In this document: positions 3,541-36,948 of the stretch, piece after piece
Position numbering within the stretch: position 1 is the stretch's first letter
Layout of the letters: every line of letters starts with the position of its first letter
From: Naegleria gruberi
Lineage: Eukaryota
Assembly (NCBI GenBank): GCA_000004985.1
Contig: GG738883.1
Length of the DNA: 64,000 nucleotides
Reading direction: 5' to 3' (one strand)
Program-made: the position numbers and the translations under genes
The notes under the pieces: generated by a model
Database searches by the model: none
What the model saw: the letters and a program-made list of their open reading frames with translations, nothing else
What the model was told of the DNA's origin: nothing

Positions 3541-6500
3541 ATGTCAGACCATAAGTTGAAAAAAATGTTTGTTGGTAGCCCATGTCAATACCTCCTTATT
3601 GGGGTAATTGTTTTGCATGCATGCTTGTTTGCTTGTTGCTATCAACCACAGTATGACATGTCTGTTGTGGCAGGTGGTGGATCTTCAATAGGTGATGGAT
3701 TATTAGCAACACAAGCATTGTTATCAGTACCAAGTGGTGGAATTGTTTCAAATTCTGATATTATATTCTGTGATACTAATAATCATAGAATACGTAAGAT
3801 AGATGTGAATGGTATCATGTCAACTATTGCTGGTACTGGTGTTGCAAATTATTCTGGTAAGTTTATAGACTTCACATTGTTCAACAACTTTGGTCAACTC
3901 ACATGCATGTGCAATTCAAATAGGAGATGGAGGAGCCGCAGTTAATGCACAACTAAACTCACCTCAAGGAATTGGAATACTATCAACTGGTGCCATTGTA
4001 TTTTCAGATACATTAAACCACTGTATTAGAAAGATTGAAAATGGAATTATTTCAACATTAGCAGGTAATGGATCACCAGGATTGACAGGTAAGTTTTATA
4101 TGCATACACATGATCTTCTAAAAACCTTGTAGTAGTTGGATCAGCAATCAGTGCTCAATTAAACACACCAACTGCTCTAATTGTTGCAAGTAATGACATT
4201 TATTTTGCTGAAAGTGGAAACCATCTCATTAGAAGAATTAGTTCTTCTGGCATGTTAACAATCTACATTGGAGAGTCAAGTGGAACATCTGGTAGTTCTG
4301 ATACAGGTACAGCTGGAGCATCATTCAAAATGAATACACCAATGGGAATTGTTTTCCATGCAGGAAATTTATACTTTTCAGATTCCAAGAATTATAGAAT
4401 TTGTGTAACCTCTGGTGCATTGATTTCTGTTTTCAAAGCATCATTGACAAGTGAACCACTTGGATTAGCTAGTTATAATGGTAATCTGTATATTGCCATG
4501 AAGGGAAACAAGGTTTTACAAGCAAAGAATTCGAATACAATCATTGATTTTGCTGGAAGTGGAACGAGTGGATATTCAGGAGATGGAGGATTGGGTACAT
4601 CTGCTTTATTGAATGGTCCATCTGCTTTGGCTTTTGATTCGAGTGGAAATTTGCTCATTTCAGATTCTTTCAATAATAGAATTAGAAAAGTTGCAAATGG
4701 AACTATTTCAACTTTGGCTGGAAATAGCAATAGAAATTTTGGAAATGGTGTTTTGGGAACATTGGCTTCATTTTCCTCTCCAAATAGTGTTTATTATACA
4801 GGAAATGATGATTCAGCAGGTGGCATTTTGATTTCTGACACAAATAATCATGTTTTAAGAAGATTGAAAGATGGATACATTTATAATGTGATTGGAAATG
4901 TTGCAATTCCTGGAAACAACAATGGAAATGGAGTGAATGTCAATGATGCAACAGTGAATTCACCTCCATTTGTCATGAAGAGATTTGGTGATTTAATTTA
5001 CTTTTTAGATAATAATGGATGTGCATTGAGAAGAATTGAATCGAATAATGTTTTAACACTTGTGGTAGGAAGTTGCAATACTGCCAATCAAGATTATTTC
5101 CTTTCCAAATCATTTGACATTTCCAATGATGGAATTATTTATATTGCTGATTATTACAATAATAGAATTGCCAAGTTTGAGATTAATAATTCCACTTTGA
5201 CAACCCTTGTTGGACGTTCCTTAAAAGGATTCTTAGATGGAATTGGGTCGAATGCCTTACTCAACTATCCTGAAAGTCTTATTATTGGACCTGATAATAT
5301 GATTTACTTTTCAGATCGTGATAATAATGCAATTAGATCTGTGTCCACAAGTTCTGCTTTGGTTACAACTCTGGCCGGTGACAGATTTAATGGATTTCTT
5401 GGAGATGGTGGTCCAGCTAAATCATCAAGACTTGATTCACCAGGACCTATTCAGTTGACATTAGGTGGTGAGATAATTTTCATGGACAGAGGAAATCAAA
5501 GAATTAGAAAGATTACAAAATATGGAAATATTTTTACTATTTATGGAAATGGATCAACAAGTGTTTTTAAAGATGCTAATGGTTTAACACTTGGTGGAAG
5601 TGGTGAAATTTACATTGCAGATAGTGGAAACAATCTCATCAAAATGTTATCTGCTGCCAAATGTTCAAATGGAACTTTTTACAATTCTTCATCATTTGAA
5701 TGTCAATGTACAGCTGGTTTCTATGGAGAGAATTGCTTGGAATATGATTGCTCAGGAATCAATTGGAGAAACTCGTCCGTTTGTTCAGGAAGAGGTTCAT
5801 GTATTGCGAAAGAAAAGTGTTCTTGCTCTGCCAATTTCACAGGAAGTAATTGTGAAGAATACTATTGTTATGGAGTTAATTCAGTGAATAGCAGTGTTTG
5901 TTCATCCAATGGTCAATGCACAGCTCCAGATAATTGTACCTGTTCATTTGGAACATTTGGGTTGAATTGTGAAAATGCTTATTGTCAAGGAATTGTCTCT
6001 TGGAATGAAACTGTTTGTAATTCGAGAGGAAAATGCATTGGCTACAACAAGTGTACATGCAATAATGGATTTTATGGCAATAATTGTGAATTTTACAATT
6101 GTTTCGGAGTTAAAAACACTGACAGCTCAATATGTTCAGGAAATGGTATTTGTTCCAAAATTGATAATTGCACTTGTTTTGATGGATATTTTGGAAATAA
6201 CTGCTCTGATTTCAATTGTGTTGGAGAGCAGTATATTGGAAAGAACTTGTGTTTGAATAATGGCTCATGCACTGGTCCAGGTGATTGTAAATGTTTGCCT
6301 GAATGGGGTGGCAACATTTGTCAACATGTCAAATGTTTTAACAAGACAGCTGTCGATTCAAATGTTTGTTCATCACATGGTCAATGTTTGTCTTTTAATA
6401 ATTGTTCATGTGATCCAAGATGGATTGGCAGTGATTGTGGCGTGACCACTTGTTTTGGTCAATTATCAAATGATTCGAATAGAGTTTGTTCATCATATGG

Positions 6501-9500
6501 TCAATGTTTAAATCCAGATCAATGCTCTTGTAATAATGGATACAGAGGTGATGAATGTGAATATAGAGTGTGTTATGATTTAATTCACACAGATCCAAAT
6601 GTTTGCTCCTCACATGGTCAATGTGAATCACCAAATAATTGTAAATGTGAAAATGGTTTTGTTGGGGAGAATTGTCAATATCACCAAGTTTATTTAGACA
6701 TTTCAAATGCATTGATTTATTCATATTTTGATTCACTTTTAAATATTTCAACAACAATTGATGGAGGTGATCAAGTATTGTTGAGTAGTGAATGTCAAGA
6801 TTTATTCGAAAGTTCAGAATTGATCAAATTGGGAGAAGCTGATTTGATATCCTGTTATTGGACACCAAATTATTTCAAAATCAAATTGGGATATAATCAC
6901 ATGATTGAACATTTATCCACATTGAAACTGAATTCAAATTTCAATATTTCACTTCAAGTCAATTCAAATTCTTCTTTAATTTTACTCAATCAGCGAACAT
7001 TTTCCTCTTCAATGGATACTTTACTTTTATACATTCCATCCAATCAAGATTTTATCATCAAATCCAGCAGTGATGATTATTATCATACATTTAAGAAAGT
7101 TTCAAAAAGTTGGACATGTGAAAACTGTCCTCAGCCACTTGTCAATTATTTAACAAATTATGAAAATAAGAGTATGATTTTAATACCAACTTCATTGCTG
7201 AATAGCATTCCATTAGATTCTTCATATTCTAAAATTCTTTCACTTAAATATTCATCCATGAATTCAATTCAAAAATCATTGACATCAAGCGACAAGACAA
7301 GAATTGAATCTAATAAGAATTTACCTCCCTCTTTCACATGGCATGGGGATAATGTAAAGGATACACAATTTAAATGTGTTGGACATAATTGTATTATTGA
7401 AAGTTCATTGAATTCAATGAATAGTTCACTTTCATTTACATTCTCTGGATTTTTCAGTTTATTGAATTCACTCTTTTCACAAAAACAAATGTTTAGATTG
7501 GTAAATGTTTATAATAATGAATTGGTGGACAGTGAATATTCATCCAATGCACAAATAGTTGGATTTCAATTGAAAACCTATGTTTCCACTTCACTTTCTT
7601 ATTATTTCTCATATTCAACATTTGATAGATTGGATCATGTTTTGACAAATGTGAATAGAACTCTATCTCTTGATGATTCTAAATTTACAATTTCAATATT
7701 CAATCAAGATCCTTTCATTTCAAGTTTCACATTACCTGAATATTTCACATTCAATTACCAATTTTATCAAATTAATTCAATTGACAATAATTTAAGTAGT
7801 AGTGAAAAAACATTGAATATAGATGTTGAAAAATTGAATTTATCAGAAGGAATGTATTTAGTGAACTTGACACTAACAGTTTCCAAGTCATATGTCACAA
7901 TTCCATATTATTATTTTGGATTTATTCATTTTTATGCTCAATCAAATGTTCCAAAATTAACAATTGATCAATTACCTGCTATTTATCCTTCCAAAAAGGA
8001 TTTACATTTGAAAGTATTGATTCAATCATCAAGTGCAATTCAAAATTATAAATGGAAATTAAAAGAAGGTTTAGTGAAAGAAAGGAAAATAATTGGACAA
8101 TTTTTGGAAAGTTCACAATTTACTCAACTCACGTCTAATACATACAAGAGTGAAATTATAATTAATAGTCAATATTTATTGGAAGGTGAATTTATTTCAT
8201 TTGATTTTTCAGTTTCAAATATGAATGGAATGTCAAATGTTTCATTATCAACTAGAATTGATGAATCTCCAAGATTTTCATGTGAATATTTCAATTTAAA
8301 GAATGAATTTACAAATTATGCATTTGATTCACTTCTTTCCATTTCATGTTTCAATTTACCTGAAGAACCAATTTCAAGTTTTAATTTTGAATTTCATTCC
8401 ATTTATGGAAAGAGATTAAATATCATTTCCAATACATTGAAAAAGAATATCATTACAAGAATACCAATGTACTCATTTGAAGAAGGTAAAATCAATCTTG
8501 TTGTAAAATTAGTGAATAGATATGGCTCAGTTTCACAAATCTCAAAAACTATTTCAGTTTTACCTCCATTAACTATTTACAATTCACAAAATTCAATTCT
8601 ATCAAGATTTAATTATTTTAAACAATCTTTTTATAATTTGAAGTTGAATGAGCCATTGAGAATTGATACTGCTCATTCAATTTATTCCTTAATGAGTATT
8701 CTCATTCAGAACGAAACCATTTCGAATATAAAAGGACAATTAGTGAATGAATTAACAATGGATCAATTATCAACATTTAATTCATTGTTGAAAGATATGA
8801 TTAATCAATTGAAAAGTATTCAATCGTTGACATATAAGGTTGATGAAAAGATAATTCAATTGACACTTCCAATAATTTCACAAATTTATTCGATTCTGGA
8901 TAATTTATCATTGGATGAAAGTTGGATTTCAGATATTTCAAGTTGGCTTGATTGGATTTATTCTGGAATGTCAAATGCCAAACAATATTATTCAGAAATA
9001 TTATTAGAAACTGTACTTTCCACTGAACATTATTCAGAATTGAAAATTATTCAAAATATACTTTCAAAAAGATATTCTAATAGATTGGATAAACAAGAAT
9101 TAATTTCAAAATATAGAGCTCAATATTTAATGTTGACTAAACTGAACGAATCATCAGATGATTCATCTTTTGAAATTTATCAAATAGATATTGCTTCTCA
9201 ATTAAATGGCAAGTCAATTACAACAAACATCAATCAAGATATTCAAATTCAAGCCATACTTCCATCAGATTTAACAAGTCAAGTGTCAAATATTGAAGAT
9301 AATTCACAATTATTTTACTCTTCATCATTAATTTCAAATGACAAGACATTGAATAATATTTTAACAAATAGACCTATTTTGGAATTATCAATTTTTTCAA
9401 AAGATGGTTCATTGACAAGTGTGAATAATTTACAGAATCCAATTCAATTGAAATTCAAAAATTTATTTACAGATTACAAAATCTATACTAATTTATCATG

Positions 9501-10801
9501 TGTTTATTTTGATGCTTCATCAAATGGATGGTCAACCAATGGAATTACAGCCAAATCAACGATAATCAAACAAGAAAATGGAAAATTGTATTTTGAAATG
9601 GAATGTAACACAACTCACTTGTCTTTATTCTCAGTTCAAGAATATAATTTCATTTCAATTCCAGTTGTTATCAACTCAAGTCAACCTAGAAATGAAATAG
9701 ATACAAATTTAGGATTAATTCTTGGATTGGCACTTGGCATTTCTATTCCAGTTGTGTTAATGATAGTGTTTGTTATCATTATCATTGTGTTATCTGTATT
9801 TGTGTGGAAATTAAAAACTAAGAGAACACGATATGATATTGAAATGACAGGAACTGATTTTCCTGATTCGAGTATGTTCCTGACACCACTTGTTAGCGTT
9901 TCAGGAAGTTCAAATGAAAGTTTCAATCCACTTTCAAGATATTTAGATCTAGTTAGAATTGGTCAAGGAGCATTTGGCTCAGTTTTCAAAGCAATGGATT
10001 CAAAAACAAATACAATGAAAGCAATCAAAGTGATGAGATATCAAACCAATGAAGAATTGAATGGATTTATGAAAGAAGGAACTCAATTAATGAATGTCAG
10101 TCATCCAAATATTTTGAAAGTGAATGATTTCTTTATTAGTCAAGATAATTTATTGTGTATTGATATGGATTTTTATGAAAAGGGTGATTTGGTTCAATTG
10201 ACCAATGAATCTTTCATTTGCTCAGAGAAGATGTTGCTTCAAATTATTTATCAAATGTTAAATGCATTGAATTATATTCACAACTCAATGAAACTCATTC
10301 ACAGAGATATCAAACCATCAAATATTTTCATCAAATCAATCGATAATGATAATATTCAAATTGTAATTGCTGATTTTGGATTGGCAAGGGCAGATCAAGG
10401 TTCTGCTCACAAATCATATGCTGGAACTCCTTTATTTATGGTATGTTATTTATCAATACTTTGGCATGTCAATTCTAACATATATTACTGTTAACTTGGA
10501 GGAATTATAGTCACCTGAACTTGGATATGGCGGAAAGTATTATTTCAATACAGATATTTACAGTTTAGGAGTCACTCTTTATCAAATCATGACCAAAGAT
10601 ACTCAAACTTCAATTAGTCAACTATTAATCACAAAAGATAAACTTGAAGTGAATACAATTCTCAAACAAAAATTTGATGAGCGAAGAATTTACTCATCTG
10701 AAGTTATTGATTTGGTCATTTCAATGTTAGAAAAGGATTTGACAATCAGACCACAAGCAACAACTCTCCTTAGCAATCATCTTTTCAAATCATTCCAATA
10801 A
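3541..10801 (+). CDS. Giant single-pass receptor-like Ser/Thr protein kinase of about 2359 aa. Order of parts: signal peptide, multiple NHL repeats, about 10 tandem EGF/tenascin-type Cys repeats, a large extracellular region, a TM helix and an intracellular kinase. Exons are 3541..3856, 3924..4088, 4133..10440 and 10511..10801.
   Basis: The N-terminus MFVGSPCQYLLIGVIVLHACLFA is hydrophobic. Repeated NHL signatures have the form DTNNHRIRKI or SGNHLIRRI. EGF-like repeats of the form CxCxxGFxGxxC span about 5680-6690. The TM helix is LGLILGLALGISIPVVLMIVFVIIIIVLSVFVW (~9720-9810). Kinase motifs are GQGAFGSV, HRDIKPSN, DFGLAR and, after intron 3, SPELGYGGKYY...DIYSLG. The three introns have GTAAGT or GTATGT donors and TAG acceptors (3857..3923, 4089..4132, 10441..10510). 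Each restores the frame between track ORFs. Confidence 0.85.
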
Positions 10802-10836: not shown

Positions 10837-13516
10837 TTAATTGTCATTACTTTTCTTCAACTCATTATTAACATCTTCAAGGCATTTTGTTGCCGAATGA
10901 TATTTACAATTAATCATGTCTTTCAAAACAGAACATAAACCTTCAATTTCTGTAAATGCAAAATGAGATTGCAAAATATCAACTTGCACAATGTGTGATG
11001 ACATTTTGTCGCATACAAGTCTTGAATGTCTCATCATCAGTTTAATTAAAACAACTGCCAGAGCATAAAGATCATGAGTAGGAGTAAATCTATAGTTGAT
11101 ATCTGTGGGGGTGTAGTCTGGTTTAAAATGTAAACAAGTTTTTGCATATTCAGAATTCATAATACTAGAATTATTCATGTCAATAATAACTGGTTCATTG
11201 TAATTTCTAAACATAATATTATTTACACTAATATCACAGTGAACGACATTATTGGAATGTAAACATTCAAGACCTTTCAAGCACCCAATGAAAACGTTTT
11301 GCAAGAAACACTCAAAGTTATTGCTATTGTAGGCATAGGTATGGTCAAAACAATCCAAAGGTTCCATTGCTGTAATTGTTATATTAGAACAATTCCATCC
11401 GGATACATCACTGATTCGGTTGCTAGTGTGTACATACTTATAAATACGACAAATATTTGGGTGTGAAATTGTTGTAACCAAGTTCATTGTATCAATTTTC
11501 TCTGACATTGTTTTTGAAAGTTTTACAAACACTTTCAATCCTGAATTTTTCATTAAGCCTGTTCCTATAATTTTCCTTTCATCAATTACTATATTATCAA
11601 AGTCAGATATGCCAGAACTATCTAATTGAATAACACCAGTGTTGTTAAATTCAGAATCCGTATTGTTTTCACTGCAGTTATTGTCGTTACTGTTAGTATT
11701 ATTGTCATCATTGTTATTGCTATTACTATTCAAATATTTCAATACCAAACAATATTTTGAAATCTTTTCAGTAATATAGTATAACTTGGAGTTAATTTTA
11801 AAAAGAATTAATACATCTGTCATATCTGAATGGGGATAATACAAAAGAGGGGTGTTGGACACAATGTATATCAGCCCTTGTTTGTTCCTTTTTACATGTG
11901 ATATTATGTCCATATTATTAACTATAGTTGGTTGTCTTGTTGATAGTACAAAAGAGAGTTTGTTTTGCAACCATTCTTTAACTGATTCAAACGTTGCAAA
12001 GTCTTGAATAACCAGAAATTGGAATGGATGTAACTCTTCCTTATAATCAGCAGTTAATATGTTTGTAATATCAATTCCGTCGTCATTAATATCGAAAGAC
12101 TTGGAAACTTTCAGCTCACAATGCGGGTTATTTAAATTCAAGTTGAACCAATATTTACAATTTTTGAATAAAGTAATCATAATCTCTGCAAGATCCTTTG
12201 GATTTGTAAAATCATACCACTCTGAAACATATAAATGGTATGCGGCTCTGCAGCTATTCTCTTTTGGTATAGAATTAGGGATGCATATAAGTCGAAGAAA
12301 GCAAAGTTTTGTGCCACCAGTCAAGGATCCATACATGTTAAGAACTGTATCAACTCCAAATTTATTGCGAAGCAATAACTCTTGGGACAATTCTGTTAGT
12401 GAGCTACGTAACAGTACTACAATTTTAATAAAGTCTGGATGATCGAACACCTTTGAATACTCATTTGGATTATATTCGGCATAAAAGCATCTCCATTCAT
12501 AATTTGGAAGAAAACTGTTTTGTAAGAATAATACTTTGTCTGGTTTAAAGTATGTTTGAGTGAAGTATCTTGTCACTCTAGTGTGGTTCGATAGTACTGT
12601 GTCTTTAATTTTACTAATAACAATGTTAAAGATGTTAAAAAATATCTTACCTGAATGAAGAAAGAACGTCATCAATGAAGTATGATTTTGTGAATGTCAA
12701 AAAGTTTTGGGAATTGATATTTAACTCGTTAGCTGAGAACATTTCCACAAGGACTTGTTTCAAGCAATCAATTGAATCATCTTGCTCAAGGTGAAGAGAA
12801 TTCATATCTTTCAAGCAAATAAGAGATGCAAGAAAGAACTTTTCCAAGTTTTTGTATCCAGCCCCCAATACCATATTATTTACAACCACCATATTCTTAT
12901 TGGCAGACTGAATATTTTGAGTAGTAATTCCAAGAGCTGTCAATACTATATATGAAAGAGAATAGTCAGAGAAAATCTTAACAGCCTCGCCCCAGTTCTC
13001 TTTTTTATCCTCTGGAACAACTAGGTCCTCTTTGTTATAGGCATTCACCTTATGAACTGATAAGATTTTTGGTGCTTTGAATGTTGGCAATATTGGAAGG
13101 GCTGAACGTGTATCCCTGTTGTAAAGAGAAGGCCAGAGAAATGTAGCATTGTTGTCTGTGATAAGGGCCCACACTGGCTCATTGTTTTCAAAGTTACTTT
13201 CTTCCTCAAATCCGGGAATAATGATTTTGTGCCTTTTTCTTCTTTTTCTTGTGTGTTTGCTTGGAATCAAAGTCTTTGGATCAAACGAATCATCCATCAC
13301 AGCTTCGGGAGTAACAGATGAATAACCTGTGTGGTAGTACACCACAGGGTCATCACTAGTTTCCATCATTACGACCAATTTTGTTGTTTCGTCCATGACA
13401 CTCACTATGGAAATTCCTAAAAACTCAAGCTTTTCCTTCAGAGCATCAATGCTAGGATAAAACTGAAGTGTGTACCAACAAATGTAAGCCTTACTTGGTG
13501 GATTTGGAGCAAACAT
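10837..13516 (-). CDS. Protein of about 880 aa with a C-terminal protein-kinase-like domain that is probably a pseudokinase. Exons are 12651..13516 and 10837..12613, with a 37-nt intron 12614..12650.
   Basis: The C-terminal region carries VHCDISVNNIMF, a catalytic-loop-like HxD...N, but no canonical DFG (IDMNNS instead) and a degenerate Gly-loop. The upstream ORF 12647..13516 ends in a TAA that lies inside a consensus donor CAG|GTAAGA. Splicing to TTATTAG| keeps the frame into ORF 10837..12675 (...DDVLSSF-S-KIKDTVLS...). The short intron length matches the other introns in the window. Confidence 0.6.
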
Positions 13517-29805: not shown

Positions 29806-32800
29806 TTACCAAAATGCACACCAACCGATGTACATTTGACATAAATTAGAGTTAGATGTTGCTTGCTCAATTAAGAGTTCAACTTGTTCAGAACAATTCA
29901 AAGTGTGAGGCTCATCTTCAATTTGGTCATCCTCATCTTCATCAACAAAATCTCTGCCCAAAAGCTTGCTTTCAATTCTTGAACTGACAGATAAAGCTCT
30001 TTGGTTGAGAGCTTCTGGTTGTTTGAGTGATTCTTCTTCAGTTTCATCACTTTGCAATGATCTTCGGAGATTCTTCTCACGAAGTGATCTAGAAGGATAA
30101 TGTACACTATCGTGGTCGGTGTAAGATGAAACAGTTTGAGGAGAACCTTCATTATTTGACCTGAGTCCCATATCAGAGTCTTGTTGCATATTATTTGCAA
30201 TATTTTGCATGGAAGATTCTTGAGTATTGTCTTCATCATTTTGAGTTTCAAGCAAACGCCAATTGATCAAAGGATCGTGGACGAAAGCTTCTAACATGGC
30301 CATAACAGAATCCTTATTTTCTCTTAACACTCTCATGACACTTTCACAAGTAGATTTGAATGTTCCTTCAATACCACAAACCTCCATAGCATTAATGAGC
30401 ATTCTTGTAAGTCTGAAAGGAACCTTTTCAGGGAACTTATCTCTGTGCATAGCAACTTCGAAACAGTCACCAAAGTCAATGTGAACAATTTTACCAGTTG
30501 ACTTTTCCAACATCAAGTTACTAGGGTGTCTGTCACCAAGACCAAGAATATAACCAACAATAGACATAACAGCCAATGAACGGGTATAGTTAGTTCTTCT
30601 TTCAAGCCAGACTTCAGAGTTTCTACTCTTGAGCCACAATACTTTGTACAAATCTTGTCCTGTGGTATTTTCAAGAGCGTATTCAAACACTTCAATCTTT
30701 TGCATTAAAGTTAAATTTTCATAATCAAAAGCGACTTGTTGCATGAGTCTATGTTCAATGTTCAAGAGTACATTTCTGCTATCCCTGAATTCCTTGATAA
30801 GAGCGTGAAGAGTATCACAATTGTCAACCCAACCAATCAAACCAGCATTAGAGCTGAGTGGAATAACAGCATATCTCTTAATACTAAGATCACGAGTAGA
30901 TGTTTCAGGATCATTCTTCAGCAAGGTGTTAACCAAACCGAAGAGTTGCATTACTCTTTCGTCTTGTCTTAAATCTTCGTGACCCTTCAACAAGAATTGA
31001 TACTCGTTACCGTCACTACCGAAAATCTTGAGTTTTCTTGGTCTTTGTTTGGAAGATATAACTCTCAATTGACGAGCAAAGTTAGCAATTCTAATAACTG
31101 GTTGTCCACTCTTGTAAGTACCAGGAATGGCAAGTTCTAAATCATTAGCTTCCAATAATTTTGGAGAAACAATTTGCAATTCAAGCTTCATCATGTGTGG
31201 AAGTTGCTTATCAATTCTTCTAAATACATGATAGTACAGGTCCCAAGCTTGAGAAAGTTCCTTTTCTTTCTTTGTTCTTTGATACTTTTTACAGAATTCC
31301 CAAGCATCCTGGAGGTCTCTACCGAAACCTTGTGCAAAAGCGATTTCGCTCAAAGTCTCTGGATTTTGAATCATTTCATGCAATGGCTTCAAGGTATTTA
31401 ACATGCCAGGGACGTTGTGTTCGCCAAAGTACAATCTAGATGCTTCTTGAAGTCCTTCATGCCACAATTCGTTCCACAAAATTGCAACTCTAATCAACTC
31501 ATGACTGACCATAAGAGCTTGTTCGGCAAGAACTGGGTTATTTTGTCTCATGTAATTAAGCAAGGATTCAGCAGCCTTCTTTCTTGACAAAGATTGAGAG
31601 TATGAACAAACTGTTAATGGATAAACCAAAGCTTGAGGATGTACTTTGCCAACCTTGGACAAAAGCTTGTGGATCAATTTACGAACAGGACCCACATGGG
31701 AGTTAACACGAGCAATAATTTGCGGAATAACTTCGAGCCATGTATCAATTGAAACAGTATTAAAACCATCAACCAGAGTCTTTTCAATTTCTTTCATAGC
31801 ACCATGTTTGAACCACAATGTAAGTAAACGTAAAATATCTTGCAAGCTTGAGTTTCTATCTGGACTGAGATTAATAGAATTGAAAAAGCCAGTAAGAGCA
31901 GAGATGAGATAAATAGTCATAGCTTCCATATTTCTTGAAGAAGGTTGAGACTTCTTTTCAAAGTGAGAAACAACTTCAGAGTTGAGAAGAGCCCATTCGT
32001 GCCAAGCTTTGTACCATTCCTTATCGAAATCTGTGGCAGCCTTGAAATGAGAAAGAATTTGTGGTAATTTGCTCTCTTCTAATCCACCATGTTGTCTGTA
32101 AATAACCTTTTGCCATTGTCCCAATGTAAGGAATGCTCTAGCTTTAAGTTGGTTATCACATTGAATGTTGTATACAAATTGGTTCATTAATTCATAAGCT
32201 CTCATTTGCTTTCCTTCAACCCACATGTGTTTGAAATATTCATATGAAATCTTTGGATGTACTTCTGGAGAAATGAGAAGCTTTTCTGGTTCTTCACTCA
32301 ATGAAATTCCATCAACTAATTTTTGAAGAATCTTTTCACTCATTCTAATCTTGTTAGACTTTCTGCAAATAGAAGCAAACTTCAACCATGTCGAAAGATC
32401 TTGTCTTTCAGGAATTACTAATTTTCTAACTGAGAGAATGTTTTGCCAATGTTCAACATTTCTCTTACAACCATGAAGTCTGTCAATCCATATTTGGTGA
32501 GTAAGAGCTTTGGTTTCTTCATCTTCAGCCTTTTGATATCTAATAATTTCTTCCATTTCAGACAATTGTTGGACGGTAACAATAATATCATAGGCTCTAT
32601 TGTAACTTTCACCAACAAGTGCTGCAAGTTCGGTATCCAAAACTTTACGAGTCTTATCAATCAAAACCTCTGCATTATGATGATCCTTTTGGTGAATAGC
32701 CAAAATTGCTCTAAAGAAAGCACCTTCACTTGTATCTTCGCTGAGAATGTTAACATAATTTCTCATGCTTTCCCATTCTCCCAAGTTCCAAGCAGCATGA

Positions 32801-35800
32801 GCTGCCATTGGTGCCATTTCTTCTTTGATAGTATCACTGAAAGTGTTCCATGATTCTTGGCAAAGCTTGAAAAGCTTTTCCCATTCGCCAATAGCCTTCA
32901 AACATCTCATCTTACCTAGAGTTAGGCTTTGGTCATATGGATTTTGCTTTTGTTTGATACTGTAGGCGTCATAAGCTTCCTTCCATCTTTGAAGTTTTTC
33001 ATACCACGATTCTTTGAGTTCAATACTGTGATTCTTTTGAGCATATTTAAGAATACCCATAGCGGCTTCATGTTGTTGGAGTTGGTTATTGATACTAATC
33101 AAATCTTCAATGAGAGCACTTGGATTTTGTTGGAATTCAATTTCCTTATAGTGCAATGCCTTGGCAAAACATTGACATTTTTCAGCCAAAGCACCAAGAG
33201 CACTTATAGCAATAGGAAGTGGATTTTCATCATGTTCCATAAATTCTGCCAAGTTCAAAAGTGTTTGCAAAACTTCAGGAGGTAAATCAGGGGAAGAGAA
33301 TGCCATCTCCAAAGCACGCACAACTTCATTTTGTGCCTTATCATCAAGTTCAGACCAACAGCTGACAAAACCAGCATTAAATAATTCTCTAGTAAGTGGA
33401 TGATAGACTTGAGCTAATGCTGAACATGAACGTAATGCAGGAGAAGGAGATTCTTTCAAAAGTTCAACTGAAAAACCTCTATTCCATTCAATCCAATCGT
33501 CCTTGGTTGCTCTCTGGGATGCTTCCCATGCCTTTCTCAAACTATTTTGGTTGATAACCATTTTCTTGACCTCTGTCATTGAGTCTTCTCCATTAGAATT
33601 ACTAACTTCATCTTCATCATCAGGCATATTAGGAAGTGGAAGTCCCTTCAACAAGTGGAATATGAATTCATTATACTTTTGATGTGTGATATTATATTGA
33701 GTTAACACTTTAGTAACCATTGGAATGAAAATAGAAAAGTCGCTTCCCAATTGGTGAATAATATTGCAGAGAGTATCCATAGCTTCTTGTCTAATTTCAT
33801 TGTTTGGTATTTTGAGAACTCTAGAAAGTGGATGAATAATTCTTGAAGAATATTCTGAGAAGTTCAAGATTCTACTCAATTTACCAATACATCTAATAGC
33901 CTCTCTCTTAAGAGAAATATTAGCCAATGGAGCTTCGAACAATTTAACCACTGTTGGAATAACGAGATATAAATATTCTTCTAAATGTCTACCAAAAACA
34001 ATAAGTGCATGAAGTGCTTTCTTTGCTGGTTTAAATTGTTGAGGAGTTTGAAGAACGCTCAATATTTGAGGGATAACATCAGGAAGGTTTGGTTTGAATT
34101 GCTCATTAAGTGCTGTACAAATTTCCTCTTCTAGTGAAATAATTTGTTCCTTGAAATCAGTATCAGAAGAACTCATATCCCAGAACTCGTGGATAAGTAG
34201 GAAAATCTCGTCTAAATAGTTTCTGATATGCTGCTTAACAATAGAAACTAGCAAACTTAATTGTTGGAAAACAGTATTACGAATATTAGGTTCACAATTT
34301 CTAATCAAGTTCAAGAAAGGAGGCATAACTTGAGGTAAGAAAGGAACACATTTCATATTTAAACTGGTAAAGATAAACATGACTGCTTGGATGGCGTTAA
34401 GATGGTGAATGGCAAGAGAAGGATCAGTCAAAATTCTAATAAGAGCATTAAATGCAACTGTAGGATAGTATTCTTCAGAAGAAGGGCTTAAACCTGGAAT
34501 AATGTCGCTGCTGTCGTTAGTTTCCTTTGCTGATTCCAATTGGAGCTTGTGTTGATATGGATCAATAGCACCAATAATACCAAGAACTTTGATTATTTCT
34601 CTTCTTGTGGTCCATTCTTCTTCCGACTTTAAAATAGCTAATAAAAGTGTCAGTAAATTAGGATACTTGATATAGGGAGTGATTACATAACCAGTGCTGG
34701 CAACTATTTGTCCTAAAGTCTTTACAGCCATAGCTCTCTTTGCTGAAGAACTTTGATCTTGTAAAGTTTCAATTACAGAAGGCAAAAGATCATCAATAAA
34801 ATCAGCAATATCCATTCCACCAACTTCTGCAAGTTTACCTGTTGTATCCAATACACAAGAGGCTACATTTGGATTATTGTCCTTGATTCTTTCCATTAAA
34901 ACTTTCAATACGCTCGAAACATATGGTTTTATCAATCTAGGAGCTGCAACTATTAAATGACCAAGCATTCTAGCGCTTTCTTCCTTGCTTCTAGAGTCTT
35001 GACTATATTCAAGTTCAGTCAAAAGTTGGAGAAGAGCCTTTCTTAAAGATGGAAGAACAAATGCAGGATTTCTAATGCTCAATCTTCCAATAACAGAAAT
35101 AGCAACCTCTCTAATTTCGAAAAATTCATCATTAAGAGCAATAAATAAGGATCTCAAATTATCTGATAATGCCAAATAATGATCAAACTTTGGATCTAAA
35201 GAAGATAAAACAGCAAATCTAATTGTGTAGTCTGTATCTGTAATACCAACAATTAAAAGTTTTGCTAAAACATCACCAACAACAGAACCAAAATGACCTT
35301 TAACTGGTGGTTTTCCTTGACTGACAAGAAGTCTGCAACATGTTTTAGCAGCCTCTTTTCTAACAGAAGGTATATCATCATCCAAATATTTTACAACACA
35401 ATCATGTACAAAATCTATCAAGTTGTGTCCCTTGACATTGAAACTTCCCAAAGTTTTAAGAGCAAAAACTATTGTTGGTGTACTATAAAGTGTAGATTCA
35501 ATATGTGGAGCAAATTGGGTTGGAGGTGTGACTGGATTAAGGGTATTAAATGGTTGTCTAGCCAAAATTTGAGAAATTGTGTCCAAAACTCTCTTTTGAA
35601 TAGGTTGTAAGAGTGCAGGGATTTCTTTGGAGATAATTGTAAGGGATTGGATAAGTGTTGTGGTTAAGCCACCAGCAAACATGGAAGGAAGTAAATGTAA
35701 AATACGGAGAGAAACTGTATCACCAACAGCTTTTGAAATATCACTAATACATGTTAAAGATTCCTCGCAAAAGTTCTTCTTTTTGATTTTAAGACCCCAT

Positions 35801-36948
35801 TCTGTTATTATGTTGAAAATGTCATCCACATATTTCTTGATAGGTTGTCCAACACGTGTTGTTAATTCACCAAGAGCAAGAAATGATGAAGGTCTTTCGA
35901 ACCCGTTTTTGATAGCTTCTAATATCAAATTAATTGATCTATGTAAGTATTTCTCATTAAATCTTTCTCCGTAAAACTTTGCCAATACGGGTATAAGCTC
36001 AATGACAGTTCTTCTGACCATTTTATCTTTATGTGAGTGGAATCCAAGAACTGTATTACAGATGGCATCAAATTCATCTTTCAAGACATTTCCTGCAAAT
36101 CCTAATAATTCACCAATGGCAAGTAAAGCTCCGTGAACAACATCAGATTTAGCATTCTTAAAGTTGATATTTGTCTGATTATAAATATCTTGATACCAAA
36201 TATTACGGAAATTTGTTGGACGTTCTGATATTAAACCAAGAACAGCATGAAGTGCTTGCACTGAACCAATTCTAACACTTACGTTTGGATCAGTGAGTCC
36301 ATTCCAAATCACACTCAAAAAGCTTTGTACATGTCCATAAAATAGTGTAGGAGCATTTTCAGCAAGTTCTTTTAGAATAAACACTGCTGCATATCGTTTT
36401 CCGTCATCATTTTTCTTGTTGTTATTGTTATCACTTTCCAACCATTCCAAAGCTCTCTTAATTTCAAATTCAACCCATTCTGCTGTTAAAGTTTTAGATT
36501 CACTTGCTCTGGCTAATTTACCAAAAGTTTTGGCAACCATTAACACTATCTGAGACTCGTTAGATGGATTTGCTACTATATTCCTAAGACATTGATAAAA
36601 TCGAGTTTTGTTAATTTTCCTTTGATCATCGTATCTAACATCAATTAAAACGTCGATTAATACGATGGCAGCAATACGGTCATTTGTTTCTCTAGAGCTT
36701 GAAAACTCTACAATTTTACTATGGTAAATATCATCTATAAACTTGATAAAGTTGTCAGCTGAATATTCACGATATATTTTCTCAACCTATTATCATCAAG
36801 ATATTGTGTTTAATGTTTATAATATTATTTAGTTTGATGAACAACAATAAAAACATACCTGTGTTTTGAACAATTGAACCCCAATGTTCCTTTGTTCCTC
36901 GTTCTTGCTTGTTATATTTGAAAATATTTCTACCAATTCACTACTCAT
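29806..36948 (-). CDS. TOR: TOR (target of rapamycin) phosphatidylinositol-kinase-related kinase of about 2356 aa. Exons are 36859..36948 and 29806..36786, with a 72-nt intron 36787..36858.
   Basis: HEAT repeats, FAT, FRB ([21 protein letters not shown]), the PIKK catalytic core (GLGDRHPSNLML...HIDFGDCFE) and a C-terminal FATC ending ...CQMYIGWCAFW are all present. Track ORF 29806..36546 starts at an internal GTG and lacks the first ~110 residues. The added 30-codon exon 1 is MSSELVEIFSNITSKNEEQRNIGVQLFKTQ, with donor CAG|GTATGT and acceptor ATAATAG|. Together with the in-frame upstream portion of exon 2 it aligns to the mTOR N-terminus (FASGLKSRNEETR...ANERKGGILAIASLIGV). Confidence 0.95.

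Follow-up and report, generated by a model that had tools for sequence, protein, structure and literature searches.

The locus at 3541-10801 on the plus strand of a 64,000-nucleotide stretch of Naegleria gruberi DNA (contig GG738883.1; hereafter the window) is a single gene with four exons and three GT..AG introns. With a probability of about 0.65, its product is a type I single-pass receptor serine/threonine kinase, in which a large ectodomain is attached via an autoproteolytic GAIN hinge. All domains of the protein are of known kinds. It is their combination, above all a GAIN domain placed before a single-pass kinase, that appears undescribed; in the literature found, the GAIN-type domain has so far been described on animal adhesion G-protein-coupled receptors (GPCRs) and polycystins and not on a kinase. 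One uninterrupted 6.3-kb exon holds everything from NHL blade 3 to DFG/GTPLFM of the kinase, with the EGF repeats, the middle region, the GAIN domain and the transmembrane (TM) helix in between. By its sequence the protein kinase is complete, and a receptor-type topology is plausible.

The sequence ahead of the TM helix, C-VYFDASSNGW-STNG-...-YFEMEC-NTT-HL-S-LFSVQE, resembles the GPCR proteolysis site (GPS). HL↓S is the cleaved sequence of EMR2/CD97. In a juxtamembrane alignment of the family (A2, 13 sequences), six columns are invariant: two Cys, one Gly and, at the cleavage site, H, L and F. The Phe at +3 is retained alongside H and L in paralogs which are just 23-40% identical. Pfam GPS (PF01825) was matched in 12 of the 13 family members at E<0.1, with 1.3e-7 as the best value. 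A profile built from this alignment, which spans the last ~195 aa of the middle region, was compared with all sequences of the PDB and matched 17 chains, 16 of them from adhesion GPCRs (ADGRL3 as the best with 1.3e-6, ADGRF1, ADGRG3, ADGRG1, ADGRG6, ADGRE5, ADGRD1, BAI3 and ADGRB2). Half of these adhesion-GPCR chains (8/16) were found at E<0.001, and the alignments cover ~100 residues and stop exactly at HLT↓xF. The sole non-GPCR chain was Apaf-1, at E 1.0.

The AlphaFold2 model of aa 1619-1999, computed with an 11-sequence family alignment, reached a mean predicted local distance difference test score (pLDDT) of 82.8 and a predicted TM score (pTM) of 0.81; a single-sequence run of the GAIN region gave a pLDDT of 41.7. 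In the model, residues 8-210 form a helical half and eleven beta strands come after it, as in the two-subdomain GAIN fold, and HLS is situated in a turn between the last two strands (E359-368 and E373-378). Ser1990 precedes the TM start at 2019 by 29 residues, which places the motif in the expected position before the membrane. We conclude from the profile matches and the predicted fold that aa 1626-1996 form a divergent yet genuine GAIN domain. Because H-L-[S/T] and the next Phe are invariant while most of the domain varies, constraint seems to act on the catalytic site itself and not just on the fold. Cleavage is argued for mainly from this strict retention of H-L-[S/T]-x-F, and it is inferred and not proven.

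Kyte-Doolittle analysis of the whole protein revealed just two hydrophobic segments, aa 9-33 and aa 2019-2051. The second one shows the peak hydropathy of the protein (3.4 over 19 aa), and since KLKTKRTR follows it directly, a type I topology fits. The seven-transmembrane (7TM) bundle of adhesion GPCRs is not present, as this one hydrophobic segment after the GPS is followed by the kinase. The juxtamembrane segment on the cytoplasmic side is conserved. The kinase domain matched Pfam Pkinase with 7.4e-51 (173.5 bits against a cut-off of 31.7) over profile positions 4-262 of 263, and its motifs are complete: GQGAFG at 2103, AIK at 2123, HRDIKPSN at 2216, DFG at 2240 and SPE at 2263. HRDIKPSN is a catalytic loop of Ser/Thr type. 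The closest PDB kinase chains are SLK/STE20-like, CaMK1 and NEK1 (~1e-28 to 1e-25). The kinase belongs to a clade found only in Naegleria, with 55-72% identity inside the genus and ~33% to the next relatives.

The spliced coding sequence of 7077 nt encodes 2358 aa followed by a stop, and its reading frame depends on the removal of all three introns. On the plus strand the open reading frames (ORFs) 3541-3945, 3890-4132 and 4252-10494 are consecutive, with a fourth at 10589-10801. Retention of intron 1 leads to a stop at 3945, while its removal gives ...NYSG/DGGAAVNAQLNSPQG and restores a NHL repeat which can be aligned to the paralog P0002 (74% identity). Similarly, retention of intron 2 leads to a stop at 4132; the frame is preserved with either of its two acceptors, and 4135 is the one chosen in the public model P0001. 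Splicing of intron 3 gives GTPLFM/SPELGYGGKYYF..., the same as in the annotated P0002, and kinase subdomain VIII then reads GTPLFM/SPELGYGG. The 2080 open codons of exon 3 have a chance probability of ~1e-70 at the local base composition. At the N-terminus, P0002 possesses an equivalent leader followed by FQPSYN, and aa 1-33 are probably a signal peptide. The antisense ORFs inside the gene are all of 120 aa or less and were attributed to chance.

The gene is already in databases as an unnamed and partly mis-modelled protein. The top match, P0001 (N. gruberi "predicted protein", 99% identity, 2271 aa), begins at Met9, retains intron 3 and terminates with ...GTPLFMVCYLSILWHVNSNIYYC, without the last third of the kinase. 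The annotation of P0003 (44% identity) likewise retains an intron at the same point (...GTPIFM/VSFF...) and terminates early. Both public models lack kinase subdomains VIII-XI, while P0002 is correctly spliced and its annotated C-terminus is the spliced form derived here (...LFKSFQ). As P0002 is spliced and the other two are read through at one and the same point, the position of intron 3 is conserved in three paralogs, and the public models of P0001 and P0003 are wrong at the same intron. The first-pass annotation, made by a model from the letters of the window, had proposed one gene with three short introns and about 2359 aa, and this structure and its domain order hold. Its gene model is better than the public one, because the latter fails to splice out intron 3 and so cuts the kinase short. 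The leader it had called a signal peptide is present as a hydrophobic stretch at aa 9-33 and is probably one; the one TM helix and the complete HRD/DFG kinase were found as it described them, and a Pfam search of the spliced protein recovered the NHL, EGF and kinase domains alike.

The ectodomain begins with NHL repeats, for which Pfam gave NHL at 1.3e-23 and TEN_NHL at 4e-27. Eleven blade signatures with a spacing of 45-58 aa, along with one degenerate blade within a 94-aa gap, amount to ~12 blades, which probably fold as two six-bladed beta-propellers. The following array opens with the partial EGF repeat, and its complete repeats have 39-40 aa and six Cys each; it was matched by EGF_TEN (7.5e-25), EGF_2 (1.3e-24) and EGF_Teneurin (4e-22). 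Among PDB sequences, 'Teneurin-like protein' was the best match of the NHL/EGF part (2e-50), together with teneurins 2-4 (teneurin-2/4 for NHL), and the EGF region of teneurin-2/3 matched the EGF array at ~1e-15. The PknD sensor (1rwi) was also among the PDB matches (2e-6). A bacterial origin of the NHL region was considered and rejected, the high scores of bacterial NHL proteins being repeat-number effects at ~30% identity and not evidence for horizontal transfer. Many NHL repeats had been expected from the first reading of the letters, and this was borne out. The EGF array expected beside them is real, with eight complete and one partial repeat instead of about ten, and of the proposed teneurin- or tenascin-like character only the teneurin part has support in Pfam and the PDB, as the tenascin hallmarks FN3 and fibrinogen gave no Pfam match.

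The middle of the ectodomain, aa 1009-1625, showed no Pfam match at E<=10 and no internal repeats by blastp or hhalign self-comparison, and its homologs come only from Naegleria and unlabelled metagenome fragments. A 988-aa profile of the middle region gave zero matches against the PDB. The longer stretch of ~990 aa, aa 1009-1996, is rich in Ser, Leu, Ile and Asn and aligns over its full length to paralogs with 84% and 40% (P0003) identity, with conservation of the Cys residues. It had been described as about 1000 aa of Ser/Asn-rich extracellular sequence. Its length and composition agree with this. The region between EGF array and membrane is, however, neither a spacer nor a low-complexity linker: it is conserved among paralogs, and its last ~370 aa are the GAIN domain with GPS, the feature that most sets the protein apart.

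An exhaustive HMMER search with a profile of the paralogs against 1.84 billion representative proteins found 17 proteins. Two of the 17 are additional full-length receptors, of which N. gruberi and N. fowleri (P0137) each have one; the rest are several kinase-less forms, the query paralogs and unlabelled fragments. In this search the family is seen only in Naegleria, with four N. gruberi paralogs and one N. fowleri protein bearing the kinase. The fused domain order of the window protein recurs in N. fowleri and in three other paralogs of N. gruberi. The first-pass annotation had suggested a search for orthologs in related amoebae; the family was found in the genus Naegleria alone, and the word amoebae is only loosely apt for this heterolobosean.

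The kinase-less members P0126-P0134 (N. gruberi, N. lovaniensis) are of ~1000-1400 aa, with NHL repeats, a few EGF repeats, GPS and a single TM helix followed by a short tail. Of the GAIN domain they carry the beta subdomain with GPS alone, without the helical subdomain A, and their GPS consensus is C.Y.D...W..dG...C.T.HLTSFAVID. One kinase-less form is already labelled "GAIN-B domain-containing protein" in UniProt. P0135 is a family member without HL, reading YSLER. P0132 and P0133 are unlabelled JGI metagenome fragments and the sole GPS-region relatives which are not labelled Naegleria. The canonical four Cys are present in both, and in P0133 the two Trp as well, hinting at a link between the reduced Naegleria GPS and the classical motif.

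Another N. gruberi paralog, P0136/P0121, keeps the NHL-EGF-GAIN-TM order and has HGN for HRD, GSGRTF for GxGxxG and no GTP..PE; from these replacements it looks like a receptor pseudokinase. P0141-P0147 are N. gruberi kinase-only annotations of 190-290 aa, 55-72% identical to the window kinase. Those with full-domain models (P0141, P0143-P0145) start just upstream of the juxtamembrane motif (S/P)RY..(R/K)IGQG.FGSV. These kinase-only annotations may represent other receptors whose gene models are truncated.

On the model of adhesion GPCRs and polycystin-1 (PMC3321182), the GAIN domain would cut its own chain at the Leu1989-Ser1990 bond as the protein matures. The N-terminal head (~215 kDa) would remain attached, without a covalent bond, to the final beta strand (SLFSVQE...) of the membrane-anchored fragment, a ~42-kDa TM-kinase stub. 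Binding of the NHL/EGF module to a ligand, a surface or another cell could then pull at or rearrange the GAIN hinge, and the TM-kinase fragment, changed in its oligomeric state or its conformation, would start Ser/Thr phosphorylation. Oligomerisation of the stub upon release of the head is our guess. The role of the exposed strand must differ from that of a tethered agonist, because there is no 7TM bundle and no pocket. That release of the 215-kDa NHL/EGF fragment by force or ligand activates the kinase stub, for example through oligomerisation, with the GAIN domain gating a kinase and not a 7TM bundle, is a tentative proposal and, taken as a whole, rather unlikely to be right.

Several points weigh against a GAIN-hinged receptor kinase. 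On the window segment itself Pfam GPS scored 21.7 bits (E 3e-4), under the gathering cut-off of 22.5. The Naegleria GPS has one Cys pair (C1949, C1984) and one Trp (W1959), where the canonical motif has two pairs and two Trp. Foldseek comparison of the AlphaFold2 model with the PDB returned no GAIN match (best E 1.9e-3, TM score 0.15). Many true GAIN domains, among them those of BAI3 and several other adhesion GPCRs, stay uncleaved in spite of a GPS, and cleavage thus cannot be read from the sequence. The kinase of P0136 is degenerate, so catalysis is not essential in every family member. Signal transmission through a single TM helix is speculative, and the steps of cleavage and signalling are inferred. 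The main rival is a receptor kinase of the conventional type for adhesion or a ligand, with the GAIN-like domain as an uncleaved structural stalk and with signalling by ligand-induced clustering alone, as other single-pass receptor kinases do it. The divergent GPS below the Pfam cut-off, the single Cys pair, the Foldseek result and the naturally uncleaved animal domains all favor it, and the GAIN domain of BAI3 has been described as uncleaved (Arac 2012, PMC3321182). It does not account for H-L-[S/T] and the next Phe being invariant at 23-40% identity, to which only P0135 is an exception, and a plain stalk is possible though on balance improbable.

The long reading frame might also be an annotation fusion of an adhesion protein, secreted or anchored, with a kinase that is a product of its own. 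N. gruberi does have kinase-only annotations at 55-72% identity beginning exactly at the juxtamembrane motif, as well as kinase-less NHL-EGF-GPS-TM proteins, so each half occurs, or is annotated, on its own elsewhere in the genome. However, the GAIN domain, the TM helix and most of the kinase lie in one exon with 2080 stop-free codons, the fused order is common to four N. gruberi paralogs and N. fowleri, and no in-frame Met with a plausible leader is found at the TM boundary, which makes two products very improbable, though an internal promoter is conceivable. Nor is a decaying or non-functional member of the multigene family a likely reading, even with a truncated public model and at least one pseudokinase among its relatives: the public model is truncated through a mistake of annotation, which left intron 3 in place, canonical splicing opens 2358 codons, the catalytic motifs are all intact and exon 4 closely matches P0002. 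We give a pseudogene the smallest chance of all.

In its layout the proposed receptor kinase with a GAIN hinge resembles the adhesion GPCRs (latrophilin/ADGRL, BAI/ADGRB, CD97/ADGRE5, GPR56/ADGRG1), which aa 1626-1996 match best in structure as well as by profile; the remaining structural matches were helical repeat proteins, presumably alike only in the helical half. Both have a modular adhesive ectodomain and then GAIN/GPS (HL↓S/T-x-F) before the first TM helix. The post-cleavage strand, SLFSVQE here and TSFAVID in the short forms, resembles the tethered-agonist consensus TxFAVLM of adhesion GPCRs (PMC12716839). The Naegleria protein differs from them in having one TM helix and not seven, a fused Ser/Thr kinase as output with no G-protein-coupling module, a GPS with one Cys pair and one Trp, and a helical subdomain A of larger size. 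The GAIN-7TM module has been reported to originate in stem holozoans, the GAIN domain itself being older (PMC12716839), and GAIN has been reported in Dictyostelium and Tetrahymena (PMC3321182). A GAIN-1TM-kinase protein in a heterolobosean fits such an older origin and adds a new partner for the domain. Polycystin-1 and the sea-urchin REJ proteins carry GAIN/GPS outside GPCRs, after a long and poorly conserved extracellular region, and so the domain can serve other membrane anchors. In contrast to them, the window protein has no PKD repeats, no PLAT, one TM helix in place of 11 and a kinase instead of a channel-complex output. Pfam REJ was not found in the middle region at E<=10 (HMMER filters drop most matches above ~0.1), and PLAT and PKD gave no match at E<=0.1 over the whole protein.

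For the NHL propeller and the eight-repeat EGF array, the best matches in Pfam and the PDB are teneurin-specific models and chains, including the 'teneurin-like protein' (PDB 9ifo/9pt5). These two modules are all that the window protein shares with teneurins, and it is not a teneurin itself. Teneurins are type II proteins with the order EGF, NHL, YD shell and toxin domain, and have no kinase and no GAIN domain; the window protein, in contrast, is type I and its NHL region precedes the EGF array. YD/RHS, YD-shell and Tox-GHH/toxin models were not among its Pfam matches. Mycobacterium tuberculosis PknD is likewise a single-pass Ser/Thr kinase with an extracellular NHL propeller as sensor; it differs in being bacterial, with an N-terminal kinase and a C-terminal sensor, one propeller, no EGF and no GAIN domain. 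The first-pass annotation had held an NHL and EGF ectodomain joined directly to a kinase to be an unusual receptor architecture; for an NHL-propeller sensor kinase as such, PknD is a precedent. Plant receptor-like kinases, TGF-beta receptors and Entamoeba transmembrane kinases have the type I layout of ectodomain, one TM helix and cytoplasmic eukaryotic protein kinase in common with it, but their ectodomains are unrelated and the window kinase is nearer to STE20/CaMK/NEK than to TKL. To our knowledge none of these three groups carries a GAIN domain.

GAIN domains define the adhesion GPCRs and polycystin-1 and hold a central place in present research on mechanosensation, and the usual account of their role is a tethered agonist acting on the 7TM bundle. 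If the proposed reading is true, the GAIN hinge would serve another kind of output in an organism only very remotely related to animals, and the receptor would offer a simple system for what GAIN cleavage does alone. It would represent 7TM-independent and possibly ancestral GAIN mechanosignalling in a discoban, and the hinge could have been a general 'shed-to-signal' device before its holozoan attachment to GPCRs. Surface receptors and adhesion factors of Naegleria are poorly known, and a family member is present in the pathogen N. fowleri (P0137). A comparative study of Naegleria by Herman et al. sought only adhesion receptors with ectodomain plus 7TM (bioRxiv 10.1101/2020.01.16.908186). In the literature, no paper was found which joins Naegleria with a GAIN domain, a NHL repeat, or GPS and adhesion GPCR, and none on a GAIN-kinase fusion; this search covered the literature only, and GAIN-kinase fusions may exist elsewhere.

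Table 1. Features of the receptor kinase gene, with positions in the window and residues of the spliced protein.
Feature	Position	Strand	Remarks
Exons	3541-3856, 3924-4088, 4136-10440, 10511-10801	+	acceptor choice may shift exon 3 start to 4133
Start codon and N-terminal hydrophobic leader	3541..3639	+	aa 1-33; Kyte-Doolittle peak aa 9-27
NHL repeat region, ~12 blades	3658..5649	+	aa 40-665; spans introns 1 and 2
Intron 1	3857..3923	+	67 nt, GTAAGT..TAG
Intron 2	4089..4135	+	47 nt, GTAAGT..TAG; 44 nt with acceptor 4132
Teneurin-type EGF array	5656..6675	+	aa 668-1007; one partial and eight complete repeats
Naegleria-specific ectodomain region	6679..8529	+	aa 1009-1625, ~620 aa, 8 Cys; paralog alignment A1
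GAIN subdomain A, all-helical	8530..9138	+	aa 1626-1828
GAIN subdomain B with GPS	9169..9642	+	aa 1839-1996; beta sandwich ending C1949..W1959..G1963..C1984-NTT-HL↓SLFSVQE
Predicted autoproteolysis site	9616..9624	+	His1988-Leu1989↓Ser1990
Single transmembrane helix	9709..9807	+	aa 2019-2051; then KLKTKRTR
Ser/Thr protein kinase domain	9949..10783	+	aa 2099-2353; split by intron 3
Intron 3	10441..10510	+	70 nt, GTATGT..TAG; separates kinase subdomains VII and VIII
Stop codon TAA	10799..10801	+	after ...LFKSFQ; P0002 has the same final residues

Three other genes of the window were also noted. Upstream, 22-2926 on the plus strand encodes a POLQ/HELQ-like helicase (DEAD, Helicase_C, HTH_61, POLQ_helical), unrelated to the receptor gene; as it is split across the overlapping ORFs 22-1716 and 1700-2926, an intron or frame change is expected near 1700. 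Downstream, a divergent kinase-like gene (10837-12675, minus strand; Pkinase 4.7e-14), likewise unrelated, is convergent with the receptor gene, its stop codon lying 36 nt past the receptor stop. No canonical HRD/DFG was seen by eye in its protein, which has VVHCDISVNN and IIDMNNSS near the expected places (unaligned), and the product may be a pseudokinase. A 2246-aa ORF at 29806-36546 on the minus strand is mTOR (mTOR_dom, FAT, FRB, PI3_PI4_kinase, FATC) and is unrelated to the receptor.

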